Part shown: piece after piece, positions 25,505 to 39,216 of the stretch
How positions within the stretch are numbered: the stretch's first letter is position 1
Layout: every line of letters begins with the position of its first letter
From: a virus
Virus record (IMG/VR): IMGVR_UViG_3300050821_017570
Span: 32,001-96,000 of that record
Strand: one strand, 5' to 3'
Length of the DNA stretch: 64,000 bases
The notes under the pieces: generated by a model
Told to the model about the DNA's origin: nothing
Databases searched by the model: none
What the model saw: only the letters and a program-made list of their open reading frames with translations
Translations under genes and position numbers: made by a program

Positions 25505-25816
25505 TTAGGATTCGTACAACAGATACATGAGATCGCGGTCATGCAGGTCTTCAGGATATCCACTATATCCGTAAAAGTATAAGTTACTCCATTCGCTCCA
25601 AGTGCTTGCCGCCACTCGGGCGCTATCGCTCTCAACCGTGCCATCACTAGCGTAGCTGACACAGGTGTAGGTGAGGTGATACTGCCAACGATGCGTGTGG
25701 CCACCGCGATCATGCCGCTGGCCAGCACTACGGTCGATTCCTCGGATCGTGTACCGATATAGATGGTTTCGAGTCATCCAGACCTGACCGATCCGTAAGG
25801 GTGCCAAATCTGTCAT
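25505..25816 (-). CDS. GQIW-family array protein
   Basis: LRIGQVWMTRN ... DLMYLLYES. Confidence 0.75.
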   Translation of the reverse strand: MTDLAPLRIGQVWMTRNHLYRYTIRGIDRSAGQRHDRGGHTHRWQYHLTYTCVSYASDGTVESDSARVAASTWSEWSNLYFYGYSGYPEDLHDRDLMYLLYES

Positions 25817-26103
25817 GGTGGAATCTTTCCATTTGGGTCACCAGCGGTTTCGAAACTTACTGGTGAGATCTCGCTAGCATACTCGCAGGTCTCGCCAGCC
25901 GCTCGGTTCAGCATACTGCTCGCCAATTGACCGTTTCCAAACGCGACCTTGATCGCTTCAAGCGTCTCGGCTGAAATCACATCGGTATGTGGGAACGTGC
26001 CGACACGTACCCACATCCCACGAGGTAGCATTGCGTATACGGCCTGCTGATCATCGAACCGAGAGACCACAAACTCTGGCACAAAATGTAACGTCTCATC
26101 CAT
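25813..26103 (-). CDS. Hypothetical protein inside array
   Basis: Start overlaps stop of array gene. Confidence 0.5.
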   Translation of the reverse strand: MDETLHFVPEFVVSRFDDQQAVYAMLPRGMWVRVGTFPHTDVISAETLEAIKVAFGNGQLASSMLNRAAGETCEYASEISPVSFETAGDPNGKIPP

Positions 26104-26452
26104 GGTATGCTTTCGGGTCCCACAAGAGGGTTATGAGGTCCACACCTTCGGGATGATTTGGTGTCTGATGAAACCACCAGGCGGTCGAACCCATGTATGC
26201 GGTATAGATGGTGTCGCGATCGCCTAACGAAATGTCAGGATAATCTGGATGAAGCCCACACCGATATCCGTGGGAGTAGATCCGAACATCATACTTACCC
26301 AGACCGGATCGCACTCTCGTTACGTGCACAATCTCAACACGGTGTGACTGATCGCGCAGCTGCCAAATCTGACCCGCCCGCAGCATGGGTGGATAGACCC
26401 CCCAGTGGAGCGGGAACAACCAGCCCGGCAGGTTACTGACGAACCGCCACAT
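26096..26452 (-). CDS. GQIW-family array protein (start may be MLRAGQ)
   Basis: LRAGQIWQLRDQ ... DLITLLWDP. Confidence 0.75.
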   Translation of the reverse strand: MWRFVSNLPGWLFPLHWGVYPPMLRAGQIWQLRDQSHRVEIVHVTRVRSGLGKYDVRIYSHGYRCGLHPDYPDISLGDRDTIYTAYMGSTAWWFHQTPNHPEGVDLITLLWDPKAYHG

Positions 26453-27105
26453 CAGGTGGCCCGACAGAAGCCAAGTGAATCCAAGGTCTCGTTCGGGTCA
26501 CGGAAGTATCCGATGATCTGCTTGGGCGTCACCCGGTTGGTCCCACTCATGGTGCCACCGTTCTGGATCATCTGGATCAGAATGCCGACCGTGTCGATCG
26601 TCAGGTTCGACTGGCCGGTTTGTTCACGCAGGTACTTGGCGAACTCAGGCCAACTGGCCAGCTGGGCGTGCCCCTGACGGCTCATGATGCCTTCGCACAC
26701 GTAGGCCAACCCAATCGAGCAGCTCGGGAAGTGGGTCAGCAGTTGAACTTCGGGAATCTGGTAGAGCACCGACTCAACGTCGGCGACCGGGTTACGGAGG
26801 TAGCTATCGCACCAGCTGATGGCTCTCAGGAGGCCCAGACTGCGGGTGCAACCGATGACCTGTTCGGCTCGTAGGCTAAACGTCTGATCGAGCCATTCGG
26901 TCATCCGCTTGTCACGATACTCGTACCCACAGAGCGTGGTGGCCTCAAGCCCATCACCCCATGGCATGGACAGCGTCTGGGCCAACACGAGGTTCCACTG
27001 GGTCAGCTCGGGCTGCCGGACGAACTCAGGTGCATTCTTCAGGACGACAAGACCTGCTTTGGTCGCGCGAGCCAATTGGCCGGCGCGTTTCGATTGTTTC
27101 GACAT
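26452..27105 (-). CDS. Hypothetical helical protein, possibly base-excision-glycosylase-like
   Basis: Long ORF with AAAG RBS; function guess is weak. Confidence 0.4.
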   Translation of the reverse strand: MSKQSKRAGQLARATKAGLVVLKNAPEFVRQPELTQWNLVLAQTLSMPWGDGLEATTLCGYEYRDKRMTEWLDQTFSLRAEQVIGCTRSLGLLRAISWCDSYLRNPVADVESVLYQIPEVQLLTHFPSCSIGLAYVCEGIMSRQGHAQLASWPEFAKYLREQTGQSNLTIDTVGILIQMIQNGGTMSGTNRVTPKQIIGYFRDPNETLDSLGFCRAT

Positions 27106-27120
27106 GATGTGCTTTCTAGT

Positions 27121-27765
27121 TCACGAACCTGAACTGGTATCAGCCGGGTTGGGACCAGGATCCTGATCCGACGTCGGACGGGCCGGCTTCGCCATATCGT
27201 CCGGCTTGGGCCAATTCAGCGGACAGGTTCGCTGGCTCGAAACCGAACTATCGTCATCAAAGTACTGAACCCGTACCTCACTGGGGAGGCGACCGGCCTC
27301 AATCGCCTTGGCCGCACCCTCAGGCCAATCAAGCCGACGGGTCACCTCATGAGCCGTAGGTTCCGACATCACGCTGGCCTGGATCTCCTTGGCCAGCCCT
27401 TCGCCGTGCCGCTTATGGGCCGCCGGATCACGCGCGTGAGCCAGCCAGGTGACCCCCATGGCGGCCAGCTCGGGATCCTGCTGGGCCGACTTACCAGTGA
27501 CGAAGTCATTGTGAGCTTCATCGAACCCAGCATACCCGTGCTGTCTCGCCACCTGATCGATCTTGTGGGCCTGATCTCGTTGGTAGCGAATGCTGGCCCT
27601 ATGGTTGCGCCAGTACTTGAGTGCGATCCGGAAGGCGTCCCAGGCCGCATGGACGACAGATGGGCGACCCGTCGCTACAGGCATTCGGGTGGCTGGGTCG
27701 TATCGGTAGTTCTGCTGACGCTGCGAATGGTAGGCTGACCGAAACGACTGAATCAGGTTGAACAT
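27121..27765 (-). CDS. Hypothetical protein
   Basis: AAAGGA RBS before MFNLIQ. Confidence 0.5.
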   Translation of the reverse strand: MFNLIQSFRSAYHSQRQQNYRYDPATRMPVATGRPSVVHAAWDAFRIALKYWRNHRASIRYQRDQAHKIDQVARQHGYAGFDEAHNDFVTGKSAQQDPELAAMGVTWLAHARDPAAHKRHGEGLAKEIQASVMSEPTAHEVTRRLDWPEGAAKAIEAGRLPSEVRVQYFDDDSSVSSQRTCPLNWPKPDDMAKPARPTSDQDPGPNPADTSSGS

Positions 27766-27773
27766 ATGGTCCT

Positions 27774-28262
27774 TTAATCCAAATGATGGAGGAGCCACCA
27801 GACCGCCACTAACTCGCGACGGCTCATCAGGTGGAGGGGTCGGGCAGTCGCGCGTAACGCGACGATACGGTCAAAGATGGGGCCACAATCGGCTCGCTCG
27901 TCGGCCGACACCATCTCACAGATCTGCTGATCCAGCAGATCGATCTGGTGGGTCAACCGCCTAGACTGACCAGTCTGGAACAGCTCAGTCAGGCGAATCG
28001 CATCGGCCGCCTCATTGGCCATCAGGTTGGGCCAATAGATCAGGTGGTAGCGAATCTGACTGGTGACATAACTCAGTATGCCGACCTGATAGTCAGCCGA
28101 CGTGTAGTCACCGTGTGGGTCCACCAGAGCGGGCAAATGGACCTCGTCAGCCCACCGGCCGGCTGTGACGGTATCACCATAGGGCCAGTACCGTTCCATC
28201 GCTACCTCATGCGTGGCGAGCTGTTGACAGAACTCTGGCGTCAGTACCGATGGAGCACCCAT
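27774..28262 (-). CDS. Hypothetical protein
   Basis: AAAGGA RBS. Confidence 0.5.
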   Translation of the reverse strand: MGAPSVLTPEFCQQLATHEVAMERYWPYGDTVTAGRWADEVHLPALVDPHGDYTSADYQVGILSYVTSQIRYHLIYWPNLMANEAADAIRLTELFQTGQSRRLTHQIDLLDQQICEMVSADERADCGPIFDRIVALRATARPLHLMSRRELVAVWWLLHHLD

Positions 28263-28272
28263 AGTGGGTCCT

Positions 28273-28560
28273 TTATAGGAGTTGGGTCTCTACATGCAAG
28301 GCAGGATCGTACAGACACTGCGTGAGATCCCAATCCGATCCACACCGAGAGTGCCAGTAGTTGGCCGTGGCGATCCACCGGTAAGGCATGAGTTCACTCA
28401 CATGATCAGACCAACAGCCAGACGGCAACATACGGCGGGTATGCGGATGAACCCCTTCGGCATCAATGGTAGTGTCAACGATACGGTATCGATGCTGCTG
28501 GCTCCGACACAGCCAGACCTGACCTGGCAGCAATCTGCTGGGGTTTAGGATGGGGTCCAT
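28273..28560 (-). CDS. GQIW-family array protein
   Basis: LLPGQVWLCRSQ ... DLTQCLYDP. Confidence 0.75.
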   Translation of the reverse strand: MDPILNPSRLLPGQVWLCRSQQHRYRIVDTTIDAEGVHPHTRRMLPSGCWSDHVSELMPYRWIATANYWHSRCGSDWDLTQCLYDPALHVETQLL

Positions 28561-28814
28561 AGGAGTTGCCAGGTGTTGTTATCTCCGTCTTGAAACGCGA
28601 CATCGGACAACACTTTCGACACACGAAACGCCCATCCTGGGGACTGAATCGCTCCTTCATAGTTCCCCCAGTAATTCCATCCGAACCAGCGGTCACCGTG
28701 CCGGATGATGGCAACCCGATTGACTGATTCCTGTCGCAACTCAAAATATTCCCGATACATCCGCATCCAGATCTGTCCATGTCTGAACCGAATCGATGAT
28801 TTGTGTGGTTCCAC
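28545..28814 (-). CDS. Divergent GQIW-family protein
   Basis: FRHGQIWMR ... WQLLWTP. Confidence 0.55.
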   Translation of the reverse strand: MEPHKSSIRFRHGQIWMRMYREYFELRQESVNRVAIIRHGDRWFGWNYWGNYEGAIQSPGWAFRVSKVLSDVAFQDGDNNTWQLLWTPS

Positions 28815-28815
28815 G

Positions 28816-29172
28816 TTAGGTCTCGGTCGACCCTGCCTCAGGGTCCCAGTAGAGGAGAATGTAGTTGGCCTGGTCAGACGGGGTGTAGAACTGGGTAGGT
28901 GTCATGACTTTGATATCAGGCAGATAGTCAGAGAGTGGTCTAACCTCCGCATCATCACTTTCCAAAAATCTGAACACTGCGCCGCCGTGTGGTTTCAGCT
29001 CATACCCACCGTAGTAGCAGCCATGGAGACTCAGCCGCCCGCTAGGACCTTTGGCTCGGAAAACTGCGAAGTATTCGGTCATACGCTCGTAACGGCGTTC
29101 CTCACTGCCACAACGGTCTAATAGTGTCCCATGTTGGCGCCAAATCTGAAAGTGTTTGAAATGGTGCTTCAT
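28816..29172 (-). CDS. Divergent GQIW-family protein
   Basis: FKHFQIWRQ ... YILLYWDP. Confidence 0.5.
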   Translation of the reverse strand: MKHHFKHFQIWRQHGTLLDRCGSEERRYERMTEYFAVFRAKGPSGRLSLHGCYYGGYELKPHGGAVFRFLESDDAEVRPLSDYLPDIKVMTPTQFYTPSDQANYILLYWDPEAGSTET

Positions 29173-29483
29173 ATGATGGCCTGTTCTGTGTCTTCATACG
29201 TGAGAATCCAAGCGGTGCCGTGTGGTTCTACCAGCACGGTGGGCTCGATAAGTTTGGGCTGGCTAAGACCGTGTTGGAGTTTCCACGGCTTGGAAACACG
29301 CTGTAGGTAGGTTATTACCGTGAGACCACCTCGTACGGCGCTACGCTTGAAGAACCAACCACCCAAACGATCCCTGGTATTGTGGTGCCGCATGACCGCC
29401 ATCAACCACGGATCCTCAGGATCATCTGTAGCCTGCCAGAGCTGGAAGTGCCTGAAACAATCGTAGGGGTTCGGAGCCGTCAT
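29169..29483 (-). CDS. Divergent GQIW-family protein
   Basis: FRHFQLWQA ... WILTYED. Confidence 0.45.
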   Translation of the reverse strand: MTAPNPYDCFRHFQLWQATDDPEDPWLMAVMRHHNTRDRLGGWFFKRSAVRGGLTVITYLQRVSKPWKLQHGLSQPKLIEPTVLVEPHGTAWILTYEDTEQAII

Positions 29484-29770
29484 GTTGGACTCCAGACGAG
29501 ATGGATGAGCGGGTAGTTGTCTAGCCCAGTGTGTCCTTTATCGCGGCTCCAAACTCCTCCGTAGCGATAGAACGTATTGGTGGTTGTCCTATGGTCACAA
29601 CTATACTTGGTTTCACAATCAATCGAATCGTCTCGTTTATACCGCTTGATAATCTCAACGATCTGGCAGGTCACCTCTTGATCGTCTGTCATCCAGATCT
29701 GACCGGCCTGTAGGTCACACGGTAAGCACGAGTCCTGGGTTGAACCCATTGGTTTCTCCTCGATAGCCAC
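29480..29770 (-). CDS. GQIW-family array protein (start uncertain)
   Basis: LQAGQIWMTDDQ ... PLIHLVWSPT. Confidence 0.7.
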   Translation of the reverse strand: MAIEEKPMGSTQDSCLPCDLQAGQIWMTDDQEVTCQIVEIIKRYKRDDSIDCETKYSCDHRTTTNTFYRYGGVWSRDKGHTGLDNYPLIHLVWSPT

Positions 29771-30614
29771 GCGGGTTGGCTACCAAACGGGTCTGGTCGA
29801 TATGAAAGTCAAACTCAGTATGGGTGTGACCGAAGCACCAGAGGTCTGGCTGGGTTCGGTAGATCAGATCATCCAGTGGGGCACAGAAATAGGGGTTCAG
29901 CCAATGGCCACGGAACTTTGGCGCAATCGCCTCCTCTGAGGGAATCCAATGGGTCAGCACGATCCGCTTGGGAGTAGGGATCTGCATGGCGCGATCGGCC
30001 CGTCGGAGCCAACCCGTTAGCCTCATCACGGCATCCTGGTGGGCCTCAATATGTCGGGCTGGAGTCCATTCAAACCTATCCCGCATGATGAGGTTCGGGC
30101 TAAAGTCGCTCACCCCTACCGAGGTGAGCCAGCAGTTGAGCCCAACCTCGGTGAGGCCGCCAGGTGGCGTCACCTGAATGGGAACCAACGGGTTCAGTGG
30201 GTTGACCAGTCTGAGGCCGTCACGCTCGATCCGCTGTCTCAGATCGGGGTCCAGCGATATGGTGAGGCCGCTCCACAAGGGGGTTCCGTAGATCTCATAG
30301 GGTTGGCCCCCAACCATCAGGGTGGTGGCCTCGTTGTGAAGCAACGTCACATGCGGACATTCCTGAAGTGCGGCCTTGAAATACGGTGACAGGAGATCTT
30401 TATGCCGGAGATCCTGAGAGTCGGTGTGGTAGAAGTCATGGTTACCGAGCACCAAATAGACAGGCCGTTCAATCTGGTTGAGAAAATCGATCACCAGTTT
30501 GGGTTTAGACCAGTGGCCCAAATCCCCACATACGCAGGTGATGTCGGCCTCCACCTCCGGCAACCCAAGGTAGCGGCCCTCAAGATGGAGATCACTAATG
30601 AGGTGAAGCCGCAT
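29715..30614 (-). CDS. Calcineurin-like metallophosphoesterase
   Basis: SDLH, GD, GNHD, TH, GHTH motifs. Confidence 0.9.
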   Translation of the reverse strand: MRLHLISDLHLEGRYLGLPEVEADITCVCGDLGHWSKPKLVIDFLNQIERPVYLVLGNHDFYHTDSQDLRHKDLLSPYFKAALQECPHVTLLHNEATTLMVGGQPYEIYGTPLWSGLTISLDPDLRQRIERDGLRLVNPLNPLVPIQVTPPGGLTEVGLNCWLTSVGVSDFSPNLIMRDRFEWTPARHIEAHQDAVMRLTGWLRRADRAMQIPTPKRIVLTHWIPSEEAIAPKFRGHWLNPYFCAPLDDLIYRTQPDLWCFGHTHTEFDFHIDQTRLVANPRGYRGETNGFNPGLVLTV

Positions 30615-30869
30615 TTAGCCTTCTGGGTTGTAGATAAGGGTTATGAGATCAAGCCGTTGAGGATCGGTGGTCCCAAGATCATCGAAACGATAATAGGAGC
30701 CATCAGGCGATGGAACCCACCTATACGTTAGATTAGCTAGTCGCATACCATCGGTATGAAACCATCGACACTGTATCCGACCATCTGGCCATGGGTTTGT
30801 ATCTACTTTCAGACGCCAATCCTGATCCCTAGAGAGCCAAATCTGCCCGGCCTTAAGCGGAGCTAGCAC
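30615..30869 (-). CDS. GQIW-family array protein
   Basis: LKAGQIWLSRDQ ... DLITLIYNP; GTG start in junction. Confidence 0.8.
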   Translation of the reverse strand: MLAPLKAGQIWLSRDQDWRLKVDTNPWPDGRIQCRWFHTDGMRLANLTYRWVPSPDGSYYRFDDLGTTDPQRLDLITLIYNPEG

Positions 30870-31120
30870 GGTGGCTCCCACAGCAGAGTGATGAGATCGT
30901 CCTGTGATGGATTACTCGGCAGGAACGCCCAATAGGCATTATTATAGGATGGTCGCCAATGAAGTTTTGTGGCACCGAAACCAGCAGACCCGGTCGAACG
31001 ATCCCGAAACGTGACTTCAAGCCAACCCTCAGTCGACGTAACGGGCTCACCAGTTACCTGGATACGACGATCCTGTCTCCGGCAGAGCCACACCTGGCCC
31101 TGTCGTAGTGGTACTAACAT
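30863..31120 (-). CDS. GQIW-family array protein
   Basis: LRQGQVWLCRRQ ... DLITLLWEPPC. Confidence 0.8.
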   Translation of the reverse strand: MLVPLRQGQVWLCRRQDRRIQVTGEPVTSTEGWLEVTFRDRSTGSAGFGATKLHWRPSYNNAYWAFLPSNPSQDDLITLLWEPPC

Positions 31121-31130
31121 GCAGGCCCCT

Positions 31131-31871
31131 TTAGCGTGGGGTTGTGTGCCTCAAACTGCCAGACAGACGGAAGCTGCGACGCTCCCGTCGTGACCCCACG
31201 GGGGCCGCATGAGCCATCCGGAATCTGCGGACCTCAGCATCGCTCACACCCTCTAGGGACGCGAACTCAAAATTCGTCGCTTGGTTCCACCGCATGGTAT
31301 GCAGGTCGAAATACCCAATGTAACCACCCTTGGCCAACTCAAACGCTCGGTGAACGTTCTGCCGGAAGCTACACGGGCCGACAAACCCAGGTTCGAACCA
31401 CTGAGGGGTCACGAAGTCACTCACGAGGGTGTTGTTGATCTTATACCCTAACGAGTCGTCTTCGACCGCATCAGCTACCTCGTAAGCCATGATGCGTGCG
31501 GTATGTGGGTCCAACACCGAGAGATTAACGTAGGGGTCTAAAATTTGCTCAAGAAGTTCGTGACTCACCGTAACTGACAACGCGTCGCCCGCCTGCTGGT
31601 CCGCCCGGGCAAACACCTTGCCGATCGGCTTGCCTGAGCTACTAAGGTCGTGGTATCCAAGCGCTCCAGCCTGATCCGCATCGTCCAGAATCAGCAGCTG
31701 CCAACACGCCGGGTCGATCGGATCGGTTCGACCGCAGAACTCCAGATGTGCATCAAGATCCCAGATTGGTGCAAAGTCCCTACTGATCTGGGTTTGAAGA
31801 TCTGGCACCATTGCCGCCACCACCGCATCTGATGTAATGGTCGAATGGTTAATCAGGCTGATACAGATCAT
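31131..31871 (-). CDS. Zincin-like metallopeptidase
   Basis: ALGYHD..VSHELLEQILDP..YEVADAVE pattern. Confidence 0.6.
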   Translation of the reverse strand: MICISLINHSTITSDAVVAAMVPDLQTQISRDFAPIWDLDAHLEFCGRTDPIDPACWQLLILDDADQAGALGYHDLSSSGKPIGKVFARADQQAGDALSVTVSHELLEQILDPYVNLSVLDPHTARIMAYEVADAVEDDSLGYKINNTLVSDFVTPQWFEPGFVGPCSFRQNVHRAFELAKGGYIGYFDLHTMRWNQATNFEFASLEGVSDAEVRRFRMAHAAPVGSRRERRSFRLSGSLRHTTPR

Positions 31872-31886
31872 GTGGGACCTCGCCGG

Positions 31887-32171
31887 CTAACCTACTTGGT
31901 CGATTGGGTCCCACAAGAGGGTGATGAGGTCAGTTATGCGTACAATGTCCGGCAGCTCGTCTGAAGAGCACTCGTGCCAATAGTCGCCGGTGCGGCCGAC
32001 TTGGTATCGGAAAACCATTGGCAACCAACGCCGTCCAGGTTGCTTCCACGAGTAGGGTTGCATCAGAGTATCAAACGCATCGTCATGCGGCGTAATCTTT
32101 ATGATCTGAAACGTAACATGCTGGCCGCGCACCAACCAGATCTGCCCATCCCTAAGCGGCGTGAGGGTCAT
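31887..32171 (-). CDS. GQIW-family array protein
   Basis: LRDGQIWLVRGQ ... DLITLLWDP. Confidence 0.8.
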   Translation of the reverse strand: MTLTPLRDGQIWLVRGQHVTFQIIKITPHDDAFDTLMQPYSWKQPGRRWLPMVFRYQVGRTGDYWHECSSDELPDIVRITDLITLLWDPIDQVG

Positions 32172-32415
32172 ACAGACAGACAGACAGACAGACGATCATT
32201 GTGAGATTAGCAACCCCTGGGATGACCAACGTACCGTCCTGCTCATGAACAGAGCCCCAGGTCAGCTGCCTGCCACGCTGCACGCGGCTCAGTAGGTCGG
32301 TCGTGGTCACGTAGTAATGGGTACTACGGTCTTCCTGTACCTGTATGGCGTCGATTCGTAACCACGTAAATTGTTCGAGCGTCTGCCAGATTTGTCCGAT
32401 TCGGATTGGCGTCAC
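32152..32415 (-). CDS. GQIW-family array protein
   Basis: IRIGQIWQTLEQ ... VCLYDP. Confidence 0.75.
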   Translation of the reverse strand: MTPIRIGQIWQTLEQFTWLRIDAIQVQEDRSTHYYVTTTDLLSRVQRGRQLTWGSVHEQDGTLVIPGVANLTMIVCLSVCLYDPHAA

Positions 32416-32651
32416 GTGGGCTCCCACAGCAGGTTGGTGAGTACGAAGTTGTCACAATGGTAGTACTCACCCTTCGGCACAAACGTACGTTCAAACGTGG
32501 CTTCATCTAACCGAGCGTTGTAGTCGTCACTGTATGTGAAGCTGAGCCAGATGTTGTGCCGGACGTGCTGGCCAATCAGGACACGGGAATCGTGACCCGA
32601 CAGGCCAAGCCGGTGGATCAGCCAGCGCTGACCCGTCTGCAGTCGTATCAT
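32412..32651 (-). CDS. GQIW-family array protein
   Basis: LQTGQRW ... LTNLLWEPT. Confidence 0.75.
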   Translation of the reverse strand: MIRLQTGQRWLIHRLGLSGHDSRVLIGQHVRHNIWLSFTYSDDYNARLDEATFERTFVPKGEYYHCDNFVLTNLLWEPT

Positions 32652-32920
32652 GGTGGGCTCCATAGTAGGTAGGTTGGGTCGCCAGGGACGGGGTTGAAAT
32701 CATCATGGTGGTACCAACCATAGTGGGCTGGATCACTGTGAAAGCGAATCAGCAGCAACGTTGTGCCTGGCGTACCGTCCTCACGGGGCAACCACGATGA
32801 CTCGGCTTCACACCACCAGTGGGTTCCATCATACGATTGGAACCCAACCGTTCGTATGAGTCGGCGGCCACACTGATTCCGGCTCAGCCAGATCTGACCT
32901 ACTCGTAATGGTTCGGTCAT
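32648..32920 (-). CDS. GQIW-family array protein
   Basis: LRVGQIWLSRNQ ... DPTYLLWSPP. Confidence 0.8.
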   Translation of the reverse strand: MTEPLRVGQIWLSRNQCGRRLIRTVGFQSYDGTHWWCEAESSWLPREDGTPGTTLLLIRFHSDPAHYGWYHHDDFNPVPGDPTYLLWSPP

Positions 32921-33204
32921 GTGGGCTCCCACAACAACTGCATGAGGTCCCACGGCTGGACATCGGATTCAGCCCAACGGTGACAGCTAGGGTCGAGGTC
33001 ACTCACGTACCACCAGTTCTGTTGTCCACAGAACCCACGATCCGTCCCACCAGGCGAGCAACGCATCGCCTGGACCGCATACTGGGCACGCTTCCTACCA
33101 TCCATACCTGACGGACGGATGACTCTGAAGACCTGAACCCGTAGGTTGGGGTTTCGACACAGCCAGACCTGGCCCTCACGGATCGACACCAGCTCACCTG
33201 TCAT
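32917..33204 (-). CDS. GQIW-family array protein
   Basis: IREGQVWLCRN ... DLMQLLWEPT. Confidence 0.8.
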   Translation of the reverse strand: MTGELVSIREGQVWLCRNPNLRVQVFRVIRPSGMDGRKRAQYAVQAMRCSPGGTDRGFCGQQNWWYVSDLDPSCHRWAESDVQPWDLMQLLWEPT

Positions 33205-33520
33205 CGCCAGACCCACGGAGCGTGCCGCGTGCGATGCGGCCCTCGATTTTCTGTTGTGAAAGTTCCAAGATGGTAGACATGCTGACTCCATAGTGGGTCG
33301 CTAGACTAGAGATGATGATCATCAGGTCGCCCAGCTCCAACAGCAAGTGGGGCAGGTCGATTGGTGTCCCATCCCTCAGGTGCTTCTTAATCAGTTCGAT
33401 CGCCTCTCCGGCCTCGCCTCCGAGGTTCAGACCCAGGAGCGCCAGATGGGGAAGCCCTTCGGCCTGTGGGTGTGGCTTCGCCGCCATCCAGGCTTGGTAC
33501 GTATCGATGTTAGGGTCCAT
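33194..33520 (-). CDS. mazG: MazG-like nucleotide pyrophosphohydrolase
   Basis: LGGEAGEAIELIKKHLRD..ELGDL..KIEGR..RGTLRGSGDDR; start refined to MDPNID. Confidence 0.9.
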   Translation of the reverse strand: MDPNIDTYQAWMAAKPHPQAEGLPHLALLGLNLGGEAGEAIELIKKHLRDGTPIDLPHLLLELGDLMIIISSLATHYGVSMSTILELSQQKIEGRIARGTLRGSGDDR

Positions 33521-33821
33521 GGATGTCCGGATCGTAAATGAGATGAACCAACTGCAGGGGTCGGGTATGCCGTCGGTAGTCAACCAGCCACTGTGGGGTA
33601 AAGAACTGATGGTTGCCGGATAGCCGGAATCCCAGCCCGCTCACCACACAATGCCGGTCACCCAGCGCGCCGCCTTCATAGACCGGCTCGTAATCGTGAC
33701 ACCATCCGTCACACAGGTAGGTTTGATGGTCCGGTACGTAGGTGACCCGCACCAGCTGATAAACAACCTGCTGGTTTCGACACTGCCAGACCTGACGGTC
33801 TTTGAGTTGCTTCGGTATCAT
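33510..33821 (-). CDS. GQIW-family array protein
   Basis: LKDRQVWQCRNQ ... LVHLIYDP. Confidence 0.75.
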   Translation of the reverse strand: MIPKQLKDRQVWQCRNQQVVYQLVRVTYVPDHQTYLCDGWCHDYEPVYEGGALGDRHCVVSGLGFRLSGNHQFFTPQWLVDYRRHTRPLQLVHLIYDPDIHGP

Positions 33822-34090
33822 GGTGGCCCCCACAGCAGGATCATCAGGTCGTCCGGTGCAAAACGTTCGGTCTGGTGATAATGCCAGGTCTGATCAGTTG
33901 GATCGAACCGAAAGGCGTGGTGGTGTATGCTACCCCACCCACCCTGCTTACCATTCCAGAAGTTAGCCTGCTGATAACTCACCTCTGCTGTCATGTCCTC
34001 TACGGCGATCACGGGGTCGGTGACGATGAAACAGCGATAGTGCTGGTACCGTAGCTGCCAGATCTGACCCACCCGGAGCGGGACTAGCAT
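33818..34090 (-). CDS. GQIW-family array protein
   Basis: LRVGQIWQLRYQ ... DLMILLWGPP. Confidence 0.8.
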   Translation of the reverse strand: MLVPLRVGQIWQLRYQHYRCFIVTDPVIAVEDMTAEVSYQQANFWNGKQGGWGSIHHHAFRFDPTDQTWHYHQTERFAPDDLMILLWGPP

Positions 34091-34347
34091 GGCGGTTCCC
34101 ACAGCAGGATCACCAGGTCTAATGACCGATCCATAGGGCTATAACGGTTCCCTGCTGCCTGCAGCTCACCTTGATAGTAGTCGCCCCGGTCGCTCCATCG
34201 GATCCAACTGGTTCCATAGGTTTGGACCGGATTATGGTCGACCTGCTCGACAAAATAGCCTCCTGACGGCTCAGCAATCTGCTGAAAGTGGTAGCGATAT
34301 CGCTGATTCCGACACATCCAGATTTGTCCTGCTCTCAAAGCTAGCAT
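34084..34347 (-). CDS. GQIW-family array protein
   Basis: LRAGQIWMCRNQ ... DLVILLWEPPC. Confidence 0.8.
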   Translation of the reverse strand: MLALRAGQIWMCRNQRYRYHFQQIAEPSGGYFVEQVDHNPVQTYGTSWIRWSDRGDYYQGELQAAGNRYSPMDRSLDLVILLWEPPC

Positions 34348-34649
34348 GGTGGCTCCCACAGAAGGGTTATGAGGTCATGTTTCAGATCAGGCAGCCCTAT
34401 GAGGCCAAACCAACGGTAGTAGGTCTGGCAATCGGAGACACAGAACGTTACGCCGCTGGTTTCATGACTCAGCGTCCGCTCGTCTAGGATGACGCGAAAA
34501 TGACCGCCCCACACCTGTTCTGACATCTGGTGCTGACGTCGATGATCGGCACCATACTGAGCAGGCCCGTACTGGAGCCGTAGGATTTGATATCGTGCCG
34601 ATTGGTCTCGACACAACCAAATCTGATCTGGTTTCAATGGGGCTAGCAT
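34341..34649 (-). CDS. GQIW-family array protein
   Basis: LKPDQIWLCRDQ ... DLITLLWEPPC. Confidence 0.8.
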   Translation of the reverse strand: MLAPLKPDQIWLCRDQSARYQILRLQYGPAQYGADHRRQHQMSEQVWGGHFRVILDERTLSHETSGVTFCVSDCQTYYRWFGLIGLPDLKHDLITLLWEPPC

Positions 34650-34897
34650 GGTGGATCCCAGAGACAGACGATAAGGATTCGGTCAGGATGGAGGGTTGAC
34701 AGCTGGTAGTACCCATCAGGATGTGGGACAAACTCTCGCCACGTCTCTATCTGCTCAGGACGGGGTGGTCGCTCCCGTAGTGGCGCGTACAGATAGCTGC
34801 ACCAGATGGTATGCCGTACATGCTTACCGATATGGATCCGTATGCCCTCGCGGTCACTCATCAGCCAGATCTGACCCTGTCTAAGCGGTGGGGTCAT
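34643..34897 (-). CDS. GQIW-family array protein
   Basis: LRQGQIWLM ... LIVCLWDPPC. Confidence 0.8.
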   Translation of the reverse strand: MTPPLRQGQIWLMSDREGIRIHIGKHVRHTIWCSYLYAPLRERPPRPEQIETWREFVPHPDGYYQLSTLHPDRILIVCLWDPPC

Positions 34898-35129
34898 ACA
34901 TCAGCCCCATGAGGTCAAACCCACGATAGGATTGGCCCTTCTGCTCCCAAATCCCTTCGTTCCACCGGACGTTCCAAATGAGATTGCCGGTATAGCCGCC
35001 ACTAAACTGGAGATAGGAAAACCTGATGTTGTAGCCGCTACCATCGGGTCGCACCTCCTCAAGCGTCAAACGATACTGCTGGTTACGGGTCAGCCAGACT
35101 TGGCCGACCTTCAGTTGGATTCGATCCAT
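34881..35129 (-). CDS. GQIW-family array protein
   Basis: LKVGQVWLTRNQ ... DLMGLMYDPT. Confidence 0.8.
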   Translation of the reverse strand: MDRIQLKVGQVWLTRNQQYRLTLEEVRPDGSGYNIRFSYLQFSGGYTGNLIWNVRWNEGIWEQKGQSYRGFDLMGLMYDPTA

Positions 35130-35132
35130 AGG

Positions 35133-35420
35133 TTAGCCTTTGGGTTCCCACAAGAGAGTTATGAGATCACAGTTACGATAGTCATGAAGCTCGTTTTGAG
35201 CCGCCGTCAGCGCGGCATTATGGTAGCGATAACAGAGTGGCTGACGGATCCAGCAGACTTGGTTAAACGGGCCGAACCTCTCATCAGGCGTGGTCCACCA
35301 GCCGTACCCATCAACCAGGTATCGATCTGGCTGTGGGGCAGCCACCACCCTATGGAGTCGCACGCGCCACCAACCCGATCGGGCCATCCAGATCTGACCC
35401 GGTCTAACCTGGGGGATCAT
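35133..35420 (-). CDS. GQIW-family array protein
   Basis: VRPGQIWMARS ... DLITLLWEP. Confidence 0.8.
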   Translation of the reverse strand: MIPQVRPGQIWMARSGWWRVRLHRVVAAPQPDRYLVDGYGWWTTPDERFGPFNQVCWIRQPLCYRYHNAALTAAQNELHDYRNCDLITLLWEPKG

Positions 35421-35700
35421 ACCGTAGCCAGACGAGGTCGTCGATATCGGCCCGAAACGCACCATCGGCATTGCAGTAGCAGATCGACTCGCCTCGTGGG
35501 CACCAATAGACACGATCAACCGTACGGTCAACCGTCTGGGTGGCAAAATCCTCACTCAGCCGGATGATTTCGCGCTGCACCCGAACCATCTCTCCGTCTG
35601 ACGTATCGGATTCTACCCACACGCCCAGTACCCGCAGGGTAGCGAGACTCCTCGGGTTCCGAAACTGCCAGATCTGCCCGACCCTAAGTGGATGGCTCAT
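35404..35700 (-). CDS. GQIW-family array protein
   Basis: LRVGQIWQFRN ... DLVWLRYDPP. Confidence 0.8.
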   Translation of the reverse strand: MSHPLRVGQIWQFRNPRSLATLRVLGVWVESDTSDGEMVRVQREIIRLSEDFATQTVDRTVDRVYWCPRGESICYCNADGAFRADIDDLVWLRYDPPG

Positions 35701-35932
35701 ACAGGCACGTGACGAGGTCATAGTTTTCTGACATCCGATTGGTTCGGGCCCAACAGTCGGGCTGATCACAGTAGCTGAACTGTTCGCGCGGCCACTGATG
35801 ACCGTCATACATGTCATACGTCGTTACCGTCAGCGTAACGGTCCGATTCGAGTGAGTCGTAATCTCACGGATCAGGAACCGCCGGTTCTGGCCGCGGTTC
35901 ATCCAGATCTGGCCAATCTTAAGTGGGGTCAT
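35684..35932 (-). CDS. GQIW-family array protein
   Basis: LKIGQIWMNRGQ ... DLVTCLYEP. Confidence 0.8.
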   Translation of the reverse strand: MTPLKIGQIWMNRGQNRRFLIREITTHSNRTVTLTVTTYDMYDGHQWPREQFSYCDQPDCWARTNRMSENYDLVTCLYEPST

Positions 35933-36191
35933 AGATCAGACTCGTGAGATCGTATTCATCGTTTTGTGACCCCACCCGATCGTAGTGGTAGACCGGCGAA
36001 CCTGATCGTTGGTACAGCGTTATATCAAGATCCATGTCCTCCATTCCCTCACCGAGATCGAGGTGGTCCCAGCGACCCTGAATCCGGTAACGAACACATC
36101 GGGTGAACCGCCGGACCGTGACGCGTTCGATGTGGTAGCGGGCCTGCTGATCCCTACTCAGCCAGACCTGACCCACCCTAAGCGGGCGCAT
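35919..36191 (-). CDS. GQIW-family array protein
   Basis: LRVGQVWLSRDQ ... DLTSLIYDPT. Confidence 0.8.
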   Translation of the reverse strand: MRPLRVGQVWLSRDQQARYHIERVTVRRFTRCVRYRIQGRWDHLDLGEGMEDMDLDITLYQRSGSPVYHYDRVGSQNDEYDLTSLIYDPT

Positions 36192-36429
36192 ATAGCATCT
36201 GCACGAGGTCTAACGGTGGTGCGTGCAGCCCACGTCCAAGCGCATTGATCCACAATTGCCAGCATCGGGTTGGTTCATCCCACCGGTGGCATCGTTCGGT
36301 TGCGTCGTCATGCAGTATGAGACCGTTATCGTCAACCCACTCGTAGTACCCCTGATCAGGGCCGGTGACGCAGAAGGTATAGCGTTGGCCCCGACACTGC
36401 CAGATTTGTCCAGCTCTTAAAGCTAGCAT
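36178..36429 (-). CDS. GQIW-family array protein
   Basis: LRAGQIWQCRGQ ... DLVQMLYAP. Confidence 0.8.
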   Translation of the reverse strand: MLALRAGQIWQCRGQRYTFCVTGPDQGYYEWVDDNGLILHDDATERCHRWDEPTRCWQLWINALGRGLHAPPLDLVQMLYAPA

Positions 36430-36722
36430 GGTGGCTCCCACAGCAGGCTGATGAGTCGATACGCCATTGTCAGTTCACATTTTAATGGTCCAATGGGAAA
36501 TCCGTCGCGCGCACCCGGAACGGTGGTCCACCAACCACCCTCATACCAGCAGAACGGCCGTCGAAATTCGGTCTTAATGTGTCGGCTGGTCTCTAGGCTG
36601 CTACCCACGTAACTGTACCAGATCGAGTCGGTGTCATGGGCGCCAATGAAAATCCGATTACGATGGTTCTGGTCCATCGCTCCACTGAGCTGCCACTGCT
36701 GACCCATCCGCAGGGCAATCAT
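36423..36722 (-). CDS. GQIW-family array protein
   Basis: LRMGQQWQL ... RLISLLWEPPC. Confidence 0.8.
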   Translation of the reverse strand: MIALRMGQQWQLSGAMDQNHRNRIFIGAHDTDSIWYSYVGSSLETSRHIKTEFRRPFCWYEGGWWTTVPGARDGFPIGPLKCELTMAYRLISLLWEPPC

Positions 36723-36952
36723 GGTGGATCCCACAGTAGCGTGATGAGCCGATGAGCCTGATCGATTCGCCAGAAGCCGTTTGACTCATAGATACGTCGC
36801 ATGGTCCAGTCCTCAAAAGGAATTCGGTTACGATCCATTCCATACCAGGTCCTCCATACCTGCTCTTTCACATGACAACCGACAAACAGCCGGTTTGGAT
36901 GAAGGTCCAGTACATCGACCAGCCAGATCTGACCTTCTCGTATGGCAATCAT
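36719..36952 (-). CDS. GQIW-family array protein
   Basis: IREGQIWLV ... RLITLLWDPP. Confidence 0.8.
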   Translation of the reverse strand: MIAIREGQIWLVDVLDLHPNRLFVGCHVKEQVWRTWYGMDRNRIPFEDWTMRRIYESNGFWRIDQAHRLITLLWDPP

Positions 36953-37188
36953 GGTGGGTCCCACAGCAGGTTGATAAGTCGATGACTCAGGTCGAATGCC
37001 CACACGGGGCCAGCCCTACGGATCGTGCGGGTCGTCCAGATTCGGGTATTTGGGTCTGGGTCGATCCCATACCAGGTTCGCCAGTCCTCACCCGTCACGT
37101 GTGCGCCAATAAACAGCCTATTCGGATGGTTGGCCCGAATGGTGGAATCCACCTGCCAGATCTGGCCCGACCGGATAGGACTCAACAC
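36949..37188 (-). CDS. GQIW-family array protein
   Basis: IRSGQIWQV ... RLINLLWDPP. Confidence 0.8.
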   Translation of the reverse strand: MLSPIRSGQIWQVDSTIRANHPNRLFIGAHVTGEDWRTWYGIDPDPNTRIWTTRTIRRAGPVWAFDLSHRLINLLWDPP

Positions 37189-37445
37189 GATCGCTCCCAC
37201 AGTAGGATCATCAGATCGTTAGGGCCAGGCCCGGTGCTGTAGTGGTGGCAACCAAGCTGATCGTCTGGCCACCAATAGATGGTACTCCATCCGTTTGACC
37301 CACTGGATCGGTTCAGATGGGCGTGAAATTGGTGCCAAATACGTGTGCCATCGTCGTGATCACCAATGTAGCGGCCAATGGTGGCTCGATACGCCTGAGC
37401 CCGGCACAGCCAGATCTGACCCTCTCTAAGCGGCGGGAGGATCAT
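37182..37445 (-). CDS. GQIW-family array protein
   Basis: LREGQIWLCRAQ ... DLMILLWER. Confidence 0.8.
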   Translation of the reverse strand: MILPPLREGQIWLCRAQAYRATIGRYIGDHDDGTRIWHQFHAHLNRSSGSNGWSTIYWWPDDQLGCHHYSTGPGPNDLMILLWERSC

Positions 37446-37704
37446 ACAGGCAAACCGTGAGATCGAACTCGTTGGGGTGACCGGAGCGGTTGCGGCACCA
37501 GGCCTGCCCGACTCCGCTGTATTCCCAATCCGTGCTACCGGCGTCACCGTTATCGTGGATCCGATGGACGGTAAAGCTGACCCTCAGTTGGGGCGGACTA
37601 CCACGCTGATCGGCGATGCTCTTGATGTGAAATCGGTACTGTTGGTAACGGGTCATCCAGATCTGACCGGGCCGAAGCTGTACTGGCGTATCAGTGGGTT
37701 CCAT
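37426..37704 (-). CDS. GQIW-family array protein
   Basis: LRPGQIWMTRYQ ... DLTVCLYDPP. Confidence 0.8.
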   Translation of the reverse strand: MEPTDTPVQLRPGQIWMTRYQQYRFHIKSIADQRGSPPQLRVSFTVHRIHDNGDAGSTDWEYSGVGQAWCRNRSGHPNEFDLTVCLYDPPAA

Positions 37705-38257
37705 AGGTGGTTTCCAAACTAGAAAGGAAGGGGCGAAACATCTCAATACTTGCCAAACAGTCATCAAGGCTCCGGTGGGCCGGATTACCCTTCGGGCGCG
37801 GCACACCCGTCACCATCTCCTTGCCGATCTCAAAGCTACTAACGTCGAGTAGACGGTAGCTGAGTTCTGACAAGCAGTTAGGTGTGTGCCAGCGGAGCCA
37901 CCGAACGTCGAAATGTACGCTGCTGCCGGCCAGGTAGGTTTGCTGGCGATCCACACGATGCGAGCGAATCCACTCGATCAGATCGGTATCACTGAAGTAG
38001 TGGCAGTCACAGATACCCTGCTCGTACCGCTGGACGATCTCACCGATCAGACCCGATTGGGTATGCAGGCGGACGCACTGGTGGTCCATCCCCTCGACGC
38101 ATTCATCATACGGCATGCCGGCCAGCCAGTGGAAGCGGCCCAGCTCAGTGAGATGTCGATCCGTAACGATACATCCGACCTCACGGATCTGGCCATCTTC
38201 GGGCTCAAGTCCCGTGGTCTCCAGATCCAGCCATACCAAACGTAACGGGTCAGTCAT
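37691..38257 (-). CDS. orn: Oligoribonuclease-like DEDDh exonuclease
   Basis: LVWLDLETTGL..LAGSSVHFD..YRLLDVSS..HRSLDD. Confidence 0.85.
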   Translation of the reverse strand: MTDPLRLVWLDLETTGLEPEDGQIREVGCIVTDRHLTELGRFHWLAGMPYDECVEGMDHQCVRLHTQSGLIGEIVQRYEQGICDCHYFSDTDLIEWIRSHRVDRQQTYLAGSSVHFDVRWLRWHTPNCLSELSYRLLDVSSFEIGKEMVTGVPRPKGNPAHRSLDDCLASIEMFRPFLSSLETTYGTH

Positions 38258-38266
38258 AAGTTCTTT

Positions 38267-38548
38267 CTAGTCAGGCTGATAGATCAGCCAGACGAGGTCA
38301 TGCGGGTCAGGTCTCAGATCGCGCCACCAGCTATGGATGGCAGGTATGCCAACATACCAACAGTAATGGTCCGAACGGTGTGCGGGGTCAAACCCAGTGT
38401 GGGTGAACCATACAGTCGAGCCATCGGATTCGAACGGAGGCCGCGGTAGGGCTACGACCTGTGTGATCCGAATCCTCCAGGCCTGTTCCCGACACAGCCA
38501 GACTTGGTTTGCCTTGAGTGGTTCTAACATCTTAACCTGCAGGCTCAT
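38267..38548 (-). CDS. GQIW-family array protein
   Basis: LKANQVWLCREQ ... DLVWLIYQP. Confidence 0.75.
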   Translation of the reverse strand: MSLQVKMLEPLKANQVWLCREQAWRIRITQVVALPRPPFESDGSTVWFTHTGFDPAHRSDHYCWYVGIPAIHSWWRDLRPDPHDLVWLIYQPD

Positions 38549-38801
38549 ATAGCAGAATCATGAGATCCAAATCGGTCGGGTCGTCGTCTCGTTGGCTCAT
38601 ATGACAGGCACGAGTTGGGTTAAACCAATAGGTACAGCGATCGTTTCGGCTGAACCTCCCATCCTGTTCAACCCGATAGCGTATGGGCTGTCGATGCTGG
38701 CCTTCATCACTCACATGTGGGTCACCCAGCTCGGTAATGATAATGCGTTCGGTCTGATCTCTTCGGAGCCAAATTTGTCCGACCCTCAGTTGTTCCAGCA
38801 T
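38532..38801 (-). CDS. GQIW-family array protein (first gene of array)
   Basis: AAGGA RBS; LRVGQIWLRRDQ ... DLMILLYEP. Confidence 0.8.
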   Translation of the reverse strand: MLEQLRVGQIWLRRDQTERIIITELGDPHVSDEGQHRQPIRYRVEQDGRFSRNDRCTYWFNPTRACHMSQRDDDPTDLDLMILLYEPAG

Positions 38802-38810
38802 AGTGTCCTT

Positions 38811-38843
38811 AAACAGATAAACCCAGGCAGAGCCTGGGTTTAT
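38811..38843 (-). terminator. Perfect 12-bp hairpin, probable terminator at head of array
   Basis: ATAAACCCAGGC-TCT-GCCTGGGTTTAT followed by CTGTTT on minus strand. Confidence 0.6.
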
Positions 38844-38865
38844 GACAACCAACCATCATATGGGT

Positions 38866-39216
38866 TCAATCAGTCCGATTATGCAGACGTCCCGCTAGAT
38901 CCCAATCCGGTCCCCACACCGGATCCTCGGTCAGCCAGCGGACCAGCGGTTCCGCCCCTTCGCCCCGCCAGGTCAGATCGACCTGCTGGCCCTGACTGGT
39001 CACAATCAGCCGAACCTCCCAATCGTCACGGCAGGTCTGGTCCTCGGACACCATGGGGGTGATGTCAAAACCGTCTGGGCAACGTCTCGACAGATGCGAT
39101 ATAAGTTCTCCACCTGCAGAGACTTGTGTCGCCGCGCTAAACAGGTGGACCCTATATCGGAGGTAGCGGGCCACGCCGTCGACCGGATGTCGAATCCGTA
39201 GACTCGTGTGGCGCAT
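38866..39216 (-). CDS. Hypothetical protein
   Basis: ORF tiling. Confidence 0.5.
   Translation of the reverse strand: MRHTSLRIRHPVDGVARYLRYRVHLFSAATQVSAGGELISHLSRRCPDGFDITPMVSEDQTCRDDWEVRLIVTSQGQQVDLTWRGEGAEPLVRWLTEDPVWGPDWDLAGRLHNRTD

Follow-up and report, generated by a model that had tools for sequence, protein, structure and literature searches.

We examined a 64,000-nucleotide (nt) window, bases 32001-96000 of IMG/VR record IMGVR_UViG_3300050821_017570, which represents a 187,139-bp phage genome estimated to be 95% complete. Positions are those of the window unless a contig from another sample is named. The minus strand carries a tandem array of short paralogous genes, most of which overlap their neighbors. 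Within 30615-38852, 19 of the 21 junctions between one paralogue and the next overlap, the exceptions being 38532/38530 and 35133/35129. A previous sequence-only reading of this DNA had proposed that, at such junctions, one short stretch encodes the tail and stop of one gene together with the start and N-terminal tail of the next in a different frame. This proved to be the case, and the 13 coordinates offered as examples are all correct start positions on the minus strand.

Two layouts of overlap within the array

We count as a tandem paralogue array any run of at least three adjacent, co-oriented, similar genes. Here, the run contains 25 units, and each matches a hidden Markov model (HMM) of the family with an E value of 1e-12 to 1e-23. 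The units, typically about 85 aa long, have P-L-R/K-x-G-Q-I/V-W as their N-terminal motif and D-L-x-x-L-L-W/Y-E/D-P as their C-terminal one. They are otherwise about 20-35% identical. One adjacent pair, 37188/36952, retains 62% identity over 301 nt. Genome-wide, the profile finds about 40 members, amounting to roughly 6% of the genome, with small groups lying outside the array. The array is present letter for letter in two DNA runs labelled soil metagenome, from two studies; no RNA run was listed. Terminator-like sites were absent from the minus strand within 28000-38900, so the array is likely carried on one long message.

When the paralogue alignment was modeled using AlphaFold2, the result was a six-stranded small beta-barrel with a predicted local distance difference test (pLDDT) score of 77. 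Its first and last strands form the high-confidence, conserved part (pLDDT 92-95), and the middle scores about 50. Because the conserved parts are the terminal strands, only 19-35 nt separate the last conserved codon of one unit from the first conserved codon of its neighbor. Measured from the W/Y codon to the next Gly codon, this spacer is 29-35 nt in one layout, class A, and 19-25 nt in the other, class B. It holds the upstream tail and stop along with the downstream ribosome-binding site, start, and N-terminal tail, in two frames. The junctions were printed in both frames, and an automated extraction followed in which the conserved W/Y and GQIW residues served as anchors (Table 1).

Table 1. 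Array, junctions, and neighboring genes in the window
Feature	Position	Strand	Description
Main tandem array	30615..38852	-	25 paralogues (77-103 aa) and three non-family genes inside; ORFs, translations, family HMM
Class A (variant)	37182..37199	-	W-E-R-S-C-stop; GTG start 37188; 7-nt overlap
Class A (exact motif)	36949..36963	-	W-D-P-P-stop; ATGA; start 36952
Class A (exact motif)	36719..36733	-	W-D-P-P-stop; ATGA; start 36722
Class A (exact motif)	36423..36440	-	W-E-P-P-C-stop; ATGCTAG; start 36429; inside 79-nt tract 86% identical to 34347 junction
Class A (exact motif)	34643..34660	-	W-D-P-P-C-stop; ATGCTAG; start 34649
Class A (exact motif)	34341..34358	-	W-E-P-P-C-stop; ATGCTAG; start 34347
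Class A (variant)	34084..34101	-	W-E-P-P-C-stop (GAA CCG CCA); start 34090
Class A (variant)	33818..33832	-	W-G-P-P-stop (TGG GGG); ATGA; start 33821
Class A (variant)	32917..32931	-	W-E-P-T-stop; ATGA; start 32920
Class A (variant)	32648..32662	-	W-S-P-P-stop (TGGAGC gives GGAG); ATGA; start 32651
Class A (variant)	32412..32426	-	W-E-P-T-stop; GTGA; GTG start 32415
Class A (variant)	30863..30880	-	W-E-P-P-C-stop; GTGCTAG; GTG start 30869
Class A geometry (variant), outside 30615-38852	29480..29494	-	W-S-P-T-stop; ATGA; start 29483; gene that follows belongs to the family only very weakly
Class B	37426..37446	-	Y-D-P-P-A-A-stop; ATG 37445; 20-nt overlap; stop in CTTAG
Class B	36178..36192	-	Y-A-P-A-stop (TAT GCG CC); ATG 36191; 14-nt overlap; stop in CTTAG
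Class B	35919..35933	-	Y-D-P-T-stop; ATG 35932; 14-nt overlap; stop in CTTAAG
Class B	35684..35701	-	Y-E-P-S-T-stop; ATG 35700; 17-nt overlap; stop in CTTAG
Class B	35404..35421	-	Y-D-P-P-G-stop; ATG 35420; 17-nt overlap; stop in GTTAG
Class B	34881..34898	-	Y-D-P-T-A-stop; ATG 34897; 17-nt overlap; stop in CTTAG
Class B	32152..32172	-	Y-D-P-H-A-A-stop; ATG 32171; 20-nt overlap; stop in CTTAG
Ambiguous junction	38530..38549	-	TATGAG offers class-B ATG 38548; standard-length N-end and public call use ATG 38530, one nt past stop
RNase T-type 3'-5' exonuclease, non-family	37691..38257	-	Pfam PF00929, E 3.6e-11; 9-nt gap on 5' side
MazG-like pyrophosphohydrolase, non-family	33194..33520	-	Pfam PF03819, E 3.9e-5; 11-nt overlaps of other kinds on both sides
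246-aa ORF, non-family	31131..31871	-	Non-overlapping junctions with own SD-like motifs on both sides
Metallophosphoesterase, non-family, after main array	29715..30614	-	Pfam PF00149, E 4e-13
Looser array continuation	25505..29779	-	Five to seven more diverged members; HMM matches and public gene calls
Members of looser continuation	25505-25837, 26096-26497, 28273-28578, 28816-29193, 29480-29779	-	HMM matches
Weaker candidates, looser continuation	28545-28901, 29169-29537	-	HMM; marginal and sub-threshold, respectively

Twelve class A junctions lie in the main array, and a thirteenth is at 29483. Their upstream genes end in W-[E/D/G/S]-P-[P/T]-(C)-stop, or once in W-E-R-S-C-stop, and in all 13 cases the next start (10 ATG and 3 GTG) begins exactly 11 nt after the T of TGG, in the -1 frame. 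Overlaps in the main array are 4 nt long (ATGA or GTGA) in seven junctions and 7 nt long (ATGCTAG and variants) in five. The Trp-Glu/Asp codons supply GGGA(G), which the sequence-only reading took to act as a Shine-Dalgarno (SD) sequence, five nt upstream of the next start. This is where other genes of the phage carry SD-like motifs, namely GAGG or GGGG; such motifs precede 39% of the first ATGs of other genes, compared with 12% of control ATGs. The repeated Trp+11 spacing, with a purine-rich pair after TGG, fits TGG-R-R as a putative ribosome-binding site. The terminal Cys of W-E-P-P-C is a pure by-product: past the A of the ATG, the upstream gene's next codon consists of TG and whichever base opens the second codon of the downstream gene. 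If that base is A, the result is a TGA stop; C or T gives Cys, and G gives Trp. All three outcomes occur among relatives in other metagenomes (tails PPC, PSC, PTW, and others). A GTG further upstream (CT GTG GG, in 10 of the 13 junctions) may offer an alternative class A start; however, the start codon at +11 is kept in 13 of 13, the SD-like motif precedes this start, and public calls use it.

Seven class B junctions lie in the main array, and the genome has two more outside it. The ATG of this layout is made up of the AT of the Tyr codon TAT and the G of the following codon, in the +1 frame. The overlap is 14, 17, or 20 nt in this phage and reaches 23 nt in relatives. The upstream stop always sits 4 nt before the Gly codon of GQIW, within CTTAG or CTTAAG at six of the seven array junctions and within GTTAG (Val-Arg) at 35420. 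Some details of the motifs given in the sequence-only reading need correction. For class A, the spacing and the -1 frame hold throughout, whereas TGG GA(G/T/C) CCA CCA TG(A / C TAG) is exact at five starts, eight others differ in the tail or use GTG, and one of the cited examples, 33821, reads W-G. For class B, the TAT-G start and the +1 frame hold at all seven examples, and the assignment of every stop to CTTAG or CTTAAG fails at 35420.

Public gene calls agreed with the family starts in 21 of 22 retrieved calls, covering 11 of the 13 cited examples. The disagreeing call uses a truncating ATG at 34317 in place of 34347, and no call was retrieved for 34897 or 35420. Three further family junctions lie elsewhere in the genome, two of class B (87695 and 87460) and one ATGA (83588). 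In total, about 92% of family junctions overlap, compared with a rough 14-23% of other same-strand pairs in the genome; this census rests on a greedy set of open reading frames (ORFs) and is approximate only. The regularity of the junctions is far beyond chance because they are homologous copies and not independent events.

We next consider what the double coding demands of codon choice, using 169 long ORFs outside the array as the codon usage reference. The upstream W/Y-E/D-P overlies downstream residues 1-3, which are L/I in class A and T/S/R/I in class B, as expected from the shifted frame. Conversely, the downstream P-L-R/K is written across the tail of the upstream gene. Either way, a motif under constraint is paired with a tail that is free to vary in the other frame, and the overlap comes at little cost. 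Where Tyr supplies the ATG, it is encoded by TAT in 18 of 18 unambiguous junctions, compared with 3 of 20 Y-type motifs that have the start elsewhere (Fisher P = 4e-8). The bias persists without two contigs that carry many paralogues, L009 and L010 (Fisher P = 0.003), and within this phage alone (9 of 9 against a genome frequency of 0.42, P = 4e-4). Genes downstream of class B junctions likewise use the rare Leu codon CTT in 8 of 8 cases (2 of 19 in other units) and the rare Arg codons AGR in 7 of 7 (3 of 15 in other units).

Outside the overlap, codon sharing was less pronounced. The proportion of same-codon pairs was 0.50 in the N-terminal block, a single-coding flank (0.46 expected, P = 0.07), 0.34 in the variable middle (0.33 expected), and 0.41 in the C-terminal block (0.31 expected), with the last excess coming almost wholly from one Leu. 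Synonymous conservation beyond the protein, on which the earlier proposal had been made to depend, is therefore strong where the overlap demands it (TAT, CTT, and AGR), whereas the flanks are near expectation. Most of what the sequence-only reading had named as grounds for refutation thus holds: amino-acid constraint acting in both frames, together with the start and stop codons themselves, accounts for junction conservation apart from small residues.

Probable inheritance of junctions with the family

An exhaustive HMMER profile search of 1.84 billion cluster representatives returned 90 matches, 30 of them the phage's own and 60 from other metagenomes. Seven retrievable contigs from other samples carry arrays (an eighth entry, L011, is a second slice of the L010 contig). 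Contigs L001 and L006 have class A junctions with the start at +11 or +10 after TGG, including the exact W-E-P-P-C-stop. L002, L003, and L006 have class B junctions, in which the stop sometimes lies two to five codons earlier than in the phage under study. Because both classes recur on other contigs, the junctions appear to have been inherited with the family. A third layout is found in L009 (3664-4392) and in the 14.6-kb L010 (1285-8614), where units end in LLYCP[T/S]W-x(2-7)-stop and Tyr is encoded by TAC. In 9 of 13 such junctions, the next start lies 11 nt after the tail Trp. The Trp-to-start spacing thus equals that of class A but is no longer tied to the structural aromatic residue. On L010, TAT occurs only at the one class B junction of that contig.

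Other searches yielded little. Two members had no tblastn match among 50,697 phage records. The family profile likewise matched nothing in the nearest RNR relatives, Microcystis phage Mel-JY01 and Rhizobium phage RHph_I1_18. Scanning with sequence patterns confirmed one locus in JGI metagenomes and none in IMG/VR or in GTDB genomes, and a word-indexed protein search returned the phage's own proteins only.

Tandem duplication, or unequal recombination between the conserved ends, would copy a core and its junction together and thereby spread the junctions. The sequence-only reading had gone further, suggesting that any cassette placed between two junctions is automatically coupled, giving a self-assembling operon. 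The junction would then be a portable adaptor or recombination joint, and shuffled cores or arbitrary cassettes would be expressed as they arrived, as in a combinatorial library. Some features of the array point this way. Units resemble one another at the nucleotide level only over 30-100 nt around the junctions. In addition, the tracts 34297-34373 and 36379-36455, around junctions 34347 and 36429, are 86% identical over 79 nt; the flanking genes are otherwise dissimilar, and identity falls abruptly to background on both sides. The two tracts share the rare codons CTA, AGA, GGA, and CAA, and they score 9.39 for synonymous sharing, narrowly above the 95% null maximum (8.08). They may represent a gene-conversion or mosaic-duplication tract, and judging by the sequences, occasional gene conversion between junction modules is possible. 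Finally, the exonuclease gene within the array has a class-B-like TATGG at its 3' side, with a 14-nt overlap onto the paralogue starting at 37704.

The behavior of non-family genes is at odds with an adaptor. Four such genes (Table 1) use a family-type junction at only one of their eight boundaries, and identical junctions flanking non-family cores were never seen. The metallophosphoesterase, for instance, has TAAATG at its 5' boundary and a 35-nt overlap with a GAGGAG SD at its 3' boundary. Of four inverted repeats of at least 12 nt in 30500-38900, none is recurrent and none lies at a family junction, and no att-like sites were found there. The contigs from the two soil samples are identical to the window, without joints or indels, and thus reveal no structural variants. 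Codon sharing in the N-terminal block is at P = 0.07, and only one or two of 561 junction pairs are marginal in synonymous sharing, with no pair other than 36429/34347 clearly above the null. We therefore consider an adaptor improbable, and the self-assembling operon was not upheld. Inheritance of the junction with each tandem duplicate is the simpler reading and explains the data.

A broader version would make the junction module itself the selected unit, serving both as an exchange patch for hypervariable cores and as a termination-reinitiation chain that delivers roughly 25 small binders in a fixed ratio. This seems to us a long shot; if true, the phage would encode in this array a library of binders able to expand itself, amounting to a repeat protein whose domains are released separately. 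The array also resembles integron cassette arrays, in concept only: in both, a single transcription unit strings together numerous short units of one orientation, and the content between the recurring boundaries varies. In contrast to integrons, however, the array boundaries have no counterpart of the attC-like imperfect inverted repeats and are coding overlaps rather than recombination sites. Integron cassettes are unrelated to one another, whereas the array units are all paralogues. No integrase was noticed beside the array, although no search was aimed at integrases.

Some relatives carry several domains in one polypeptide. Two-domain proteins (P0018, P0022, P0026, P0072, and P0082) contain in-frame xGQxW ... 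DLxxL[LV] modules, and P0054, P0066, and P0077 contain 3 to 10 or more repeats of this module. In the multi-repeat proteins, the match to the family profile is limited to its first 25-30 positions, so their kinship is only a lead. These relatives have the same N- and C-strand motifs as the array units; unlike the units, their domains are fused in frame. Their linker of 6-8 residues is within 1 nt of the class B spacer, which hints at fission or fusion by single-base insertions or deletions.

The same proteins raise the question of whether the junctions are programmed frameshift sites (-1 in class A and +1 in class B) that yield fused, multi-domain polyproteins. The offsets are regular, and the class B Tyr-to-Gly spacing (19, 22, or 25 nt) differs by one nt from that of an in-frame linker. 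Nevertheless, no slippery in-frame X XXY YYZ heptamer occurs within 48 nt of any of 24 stops, the P-site codons before class B stops (GCT, ACT, and GGT) cannot re-pair at +1, and stimulatory RNA structure was not found. Moreover, the downstream start is kept at a fixed position, as ATG or GTG in 13 of 13 class A junctions and as ATG in the 7 + 2 of class B. We regard frameshifting as extremely improbable. The yeast Ty1 +1 frameshift site is CUU-AGG-C. We considered the class B sequence CTT-AGG-G as a Ty1-like site and rejected it, since the motif lies in the downstream gene's own frame and no shift is needed.

Exonucleases accompany several of the arrays. The exonuclease in the phage array ends (37691-37705) in T-T-Y-G-T-H-stop, encoded by TAT GGA ACC CAC TGA, which resembles the class B sequence TAT GAC CCC ACT TAA with one base added and supplies the ATG of the next paralogue; this 3' end may be the remnant of a family gene's 3' end. 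The arrays of L002 (1521-1964) and L003 (1307-1381) end at a PolB-exo-like 3'-5' exonuclease (PF10108, E 1.4e-8), which has no detectable similarity to the RNase T-type exonuclease (E 0.34). DEDD-type exonucleases are thus a recurrent neighborhood of the arrays.

Putative translational coupling

Collectively, we think the locus is probably a tandem array of old, diverged paralogues whose overlap layouts were inherited and whose products are co-translated through the overlaps. As judged from gene layout, translational coupling of the units is plausible. The ORFs are adjacent and co-directional, and their stops and starts overlap, with class B falling outside the typical -4/-1 spacing. The overlaps would keep roughly 25 products co-translated. 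Class A could do so by ordinary -4/-7 stop-start coupling, helped by the SD, and class B by re-initiation after termination just downstream or by SD-independent initiation.

Class A has well-studied counterparts in the coupled stop-start pairs (ATGA/TGATG; for example, in the trp operon), and 4-nt stop-start overlaps are generally coupled where tested (PMC6728339, PMC12548453). Like those pairs, class A junctions are co-directional, polycistronic ATGA or GTGA overlaps with the SD inside the upstream coding sequence. They differ in that the array repeats the same junction about 20 times between paralogues and that the SD-like bases come from a conserved structural Trp codon. The array also has 7-nt class A overlaps and 14-20-nt class B overlaps without an SD, and its coupling is putative. 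Class B is closer to re-initiation upstream of a stop, as in the scanning model and RNA-phage coat/lysis genes (PMC12548453): an SD-less ATG lies 14-20 nt before the stop, and the terminating ribosome would need to make a short backward move. Compared with those systems, the class B distance is at the long end for good coupling, and SD-independent de novo initiation is equally simple.

Several observations weigh against this interpretation. Coupling weakens with distance, and most overlaps are short (PMC12548453); at 14-20 nt, and up to 23 nt in relatives, class B exceeds the -4/-1 spacings best documented for coupling (PMC12548453). None of the class B starts in the phage matches any of five SD-like motifs tested (34897 has GGGG 8 nt upstream), and about 60% of the phage's genes lack an SD-like motif, so class B starts may initiate alone. 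No start-masking RNA structure was detected at the family junctions, where the mean z score against dinucleotide shuffles was +0.51 (class A) and +0.37 (class B) and the start region is 45-48% unpaired. Coupling through RNA unfolding is therefore unsupported. With respect to inheritance, a tree of 66 cores left 47 of 63 branches open and gave no traceable descent of the junction classes, with W/Y clustering at P = 0.06 overall and 0.17 within the genome. Codon choice adds further points. Class A Glu is GAG in 6 of 7 cases (0.63 expected, P = 0.2), so selection for a stronger SD is not indicated. Some synonymous biases are left over: CCA is preferred for the first Pro of class A (8 of 12 against 0.25, P = 0.003), Leu(-1) is CTG or TTG in 11 of 13, and the single-coding Leu of the C-terminal D-L pair (codon -5 from W/Y) is CTC in 20 of 29 units (genome frequency 0.24, P = 4e-7). 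The combination GAC/GAT-CTC is frequent in L002 and L003 as well.

Part of this evidence would suit a neutral origin, in which the overlaps are by-products of compaction in a duplicated array and each gene initiates independently, without coupling. The unstructured junction RNA would leave starts accessible without upstream translation, class A has its own SD-like motif, most genes of the phage do without one anyway, and flanking synonymous sites are near expectation. Non-family genes of the array are also tightly packed, by assorted means. However, compaction does not readily account for overlap at 19 of 21 family junctions against the rough 14-23% elsewhere in the genome, for layouts kept in several diverged phages, or for the general coupling of 4-nt overlaps cited above. 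We consider a neutral origin without coupling rather unlikely.

Under inheritance with putative coupling, the array is an unusually regular new example of ordinary gene overlap, with no new mechanism or way of building operons. It nevertheless offers a natural replicate set for the study of overlap and coupling: a single genome holds two junction designs in about 20 copies, and relatives add more. The set illustrates how a conserved protein motif can provide the SD (Trp-Glu) or the start codon (Tyr TAT-G) of the gene that follows, and which synonymous codons pay for it. It also bears on whether an SD-less start 14-23 nt upstream of a stop can re-initiate.

The only array junction with a textbook start-masking structure is the start of the non-family 246-aa gene (31871). 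There, the paralogue that ends at 31887 contributes its L-L-W-D codons to one arm of a predicted 12-bp hairpin (31868-31918, minus strand; minimum free energy -22.1 kcal/mol, z -1.4). The other arm is formed by the ATG of the 246-aa gene and the bases immediately 5' of it, and the loop holds the upstream stop and a GAGG.

Protein family and array edge

A larger question than the junctions is the family itself, an unnamed small barrel with a roughly 40-fold expansion, known only from uncultured phages. Between 10 and 27 members were compared with Pfam, PHROGs, and NCBIfam, and no profile matched at E ≤ 0.1. Atlas comparison gave weak leads only (DUF6354, DUF2158/YodC, and DUF1653). Foldseek found no match to the AlphaFold2 model at E ≤ 0.001. 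The best VIA-align match was Spt5 KOW (Z 5.2, root-mean-square deviation 2.4 over 60 residues), followed by EF-P domain I and Tudor (Z 4.3-4.5), all below a convincing level.

Past the main array, a looser continuation holds more diverged members (Table 1). HFQLW or HFQIW replaces GQIW in two very diverged units (29169-29483 and 28816-29172), and the family grades into barely recognizable members at the array edge.

The Q-I-W codons CAG-ATC-TG form an 8-nt palindrome, CAGATCTG, and 11 of its 23 genome copies lie within the array (30000-39000). GATC occurs 1590 times in the 187 kb, about twice the roughly 730 expected at equal base frequencies.

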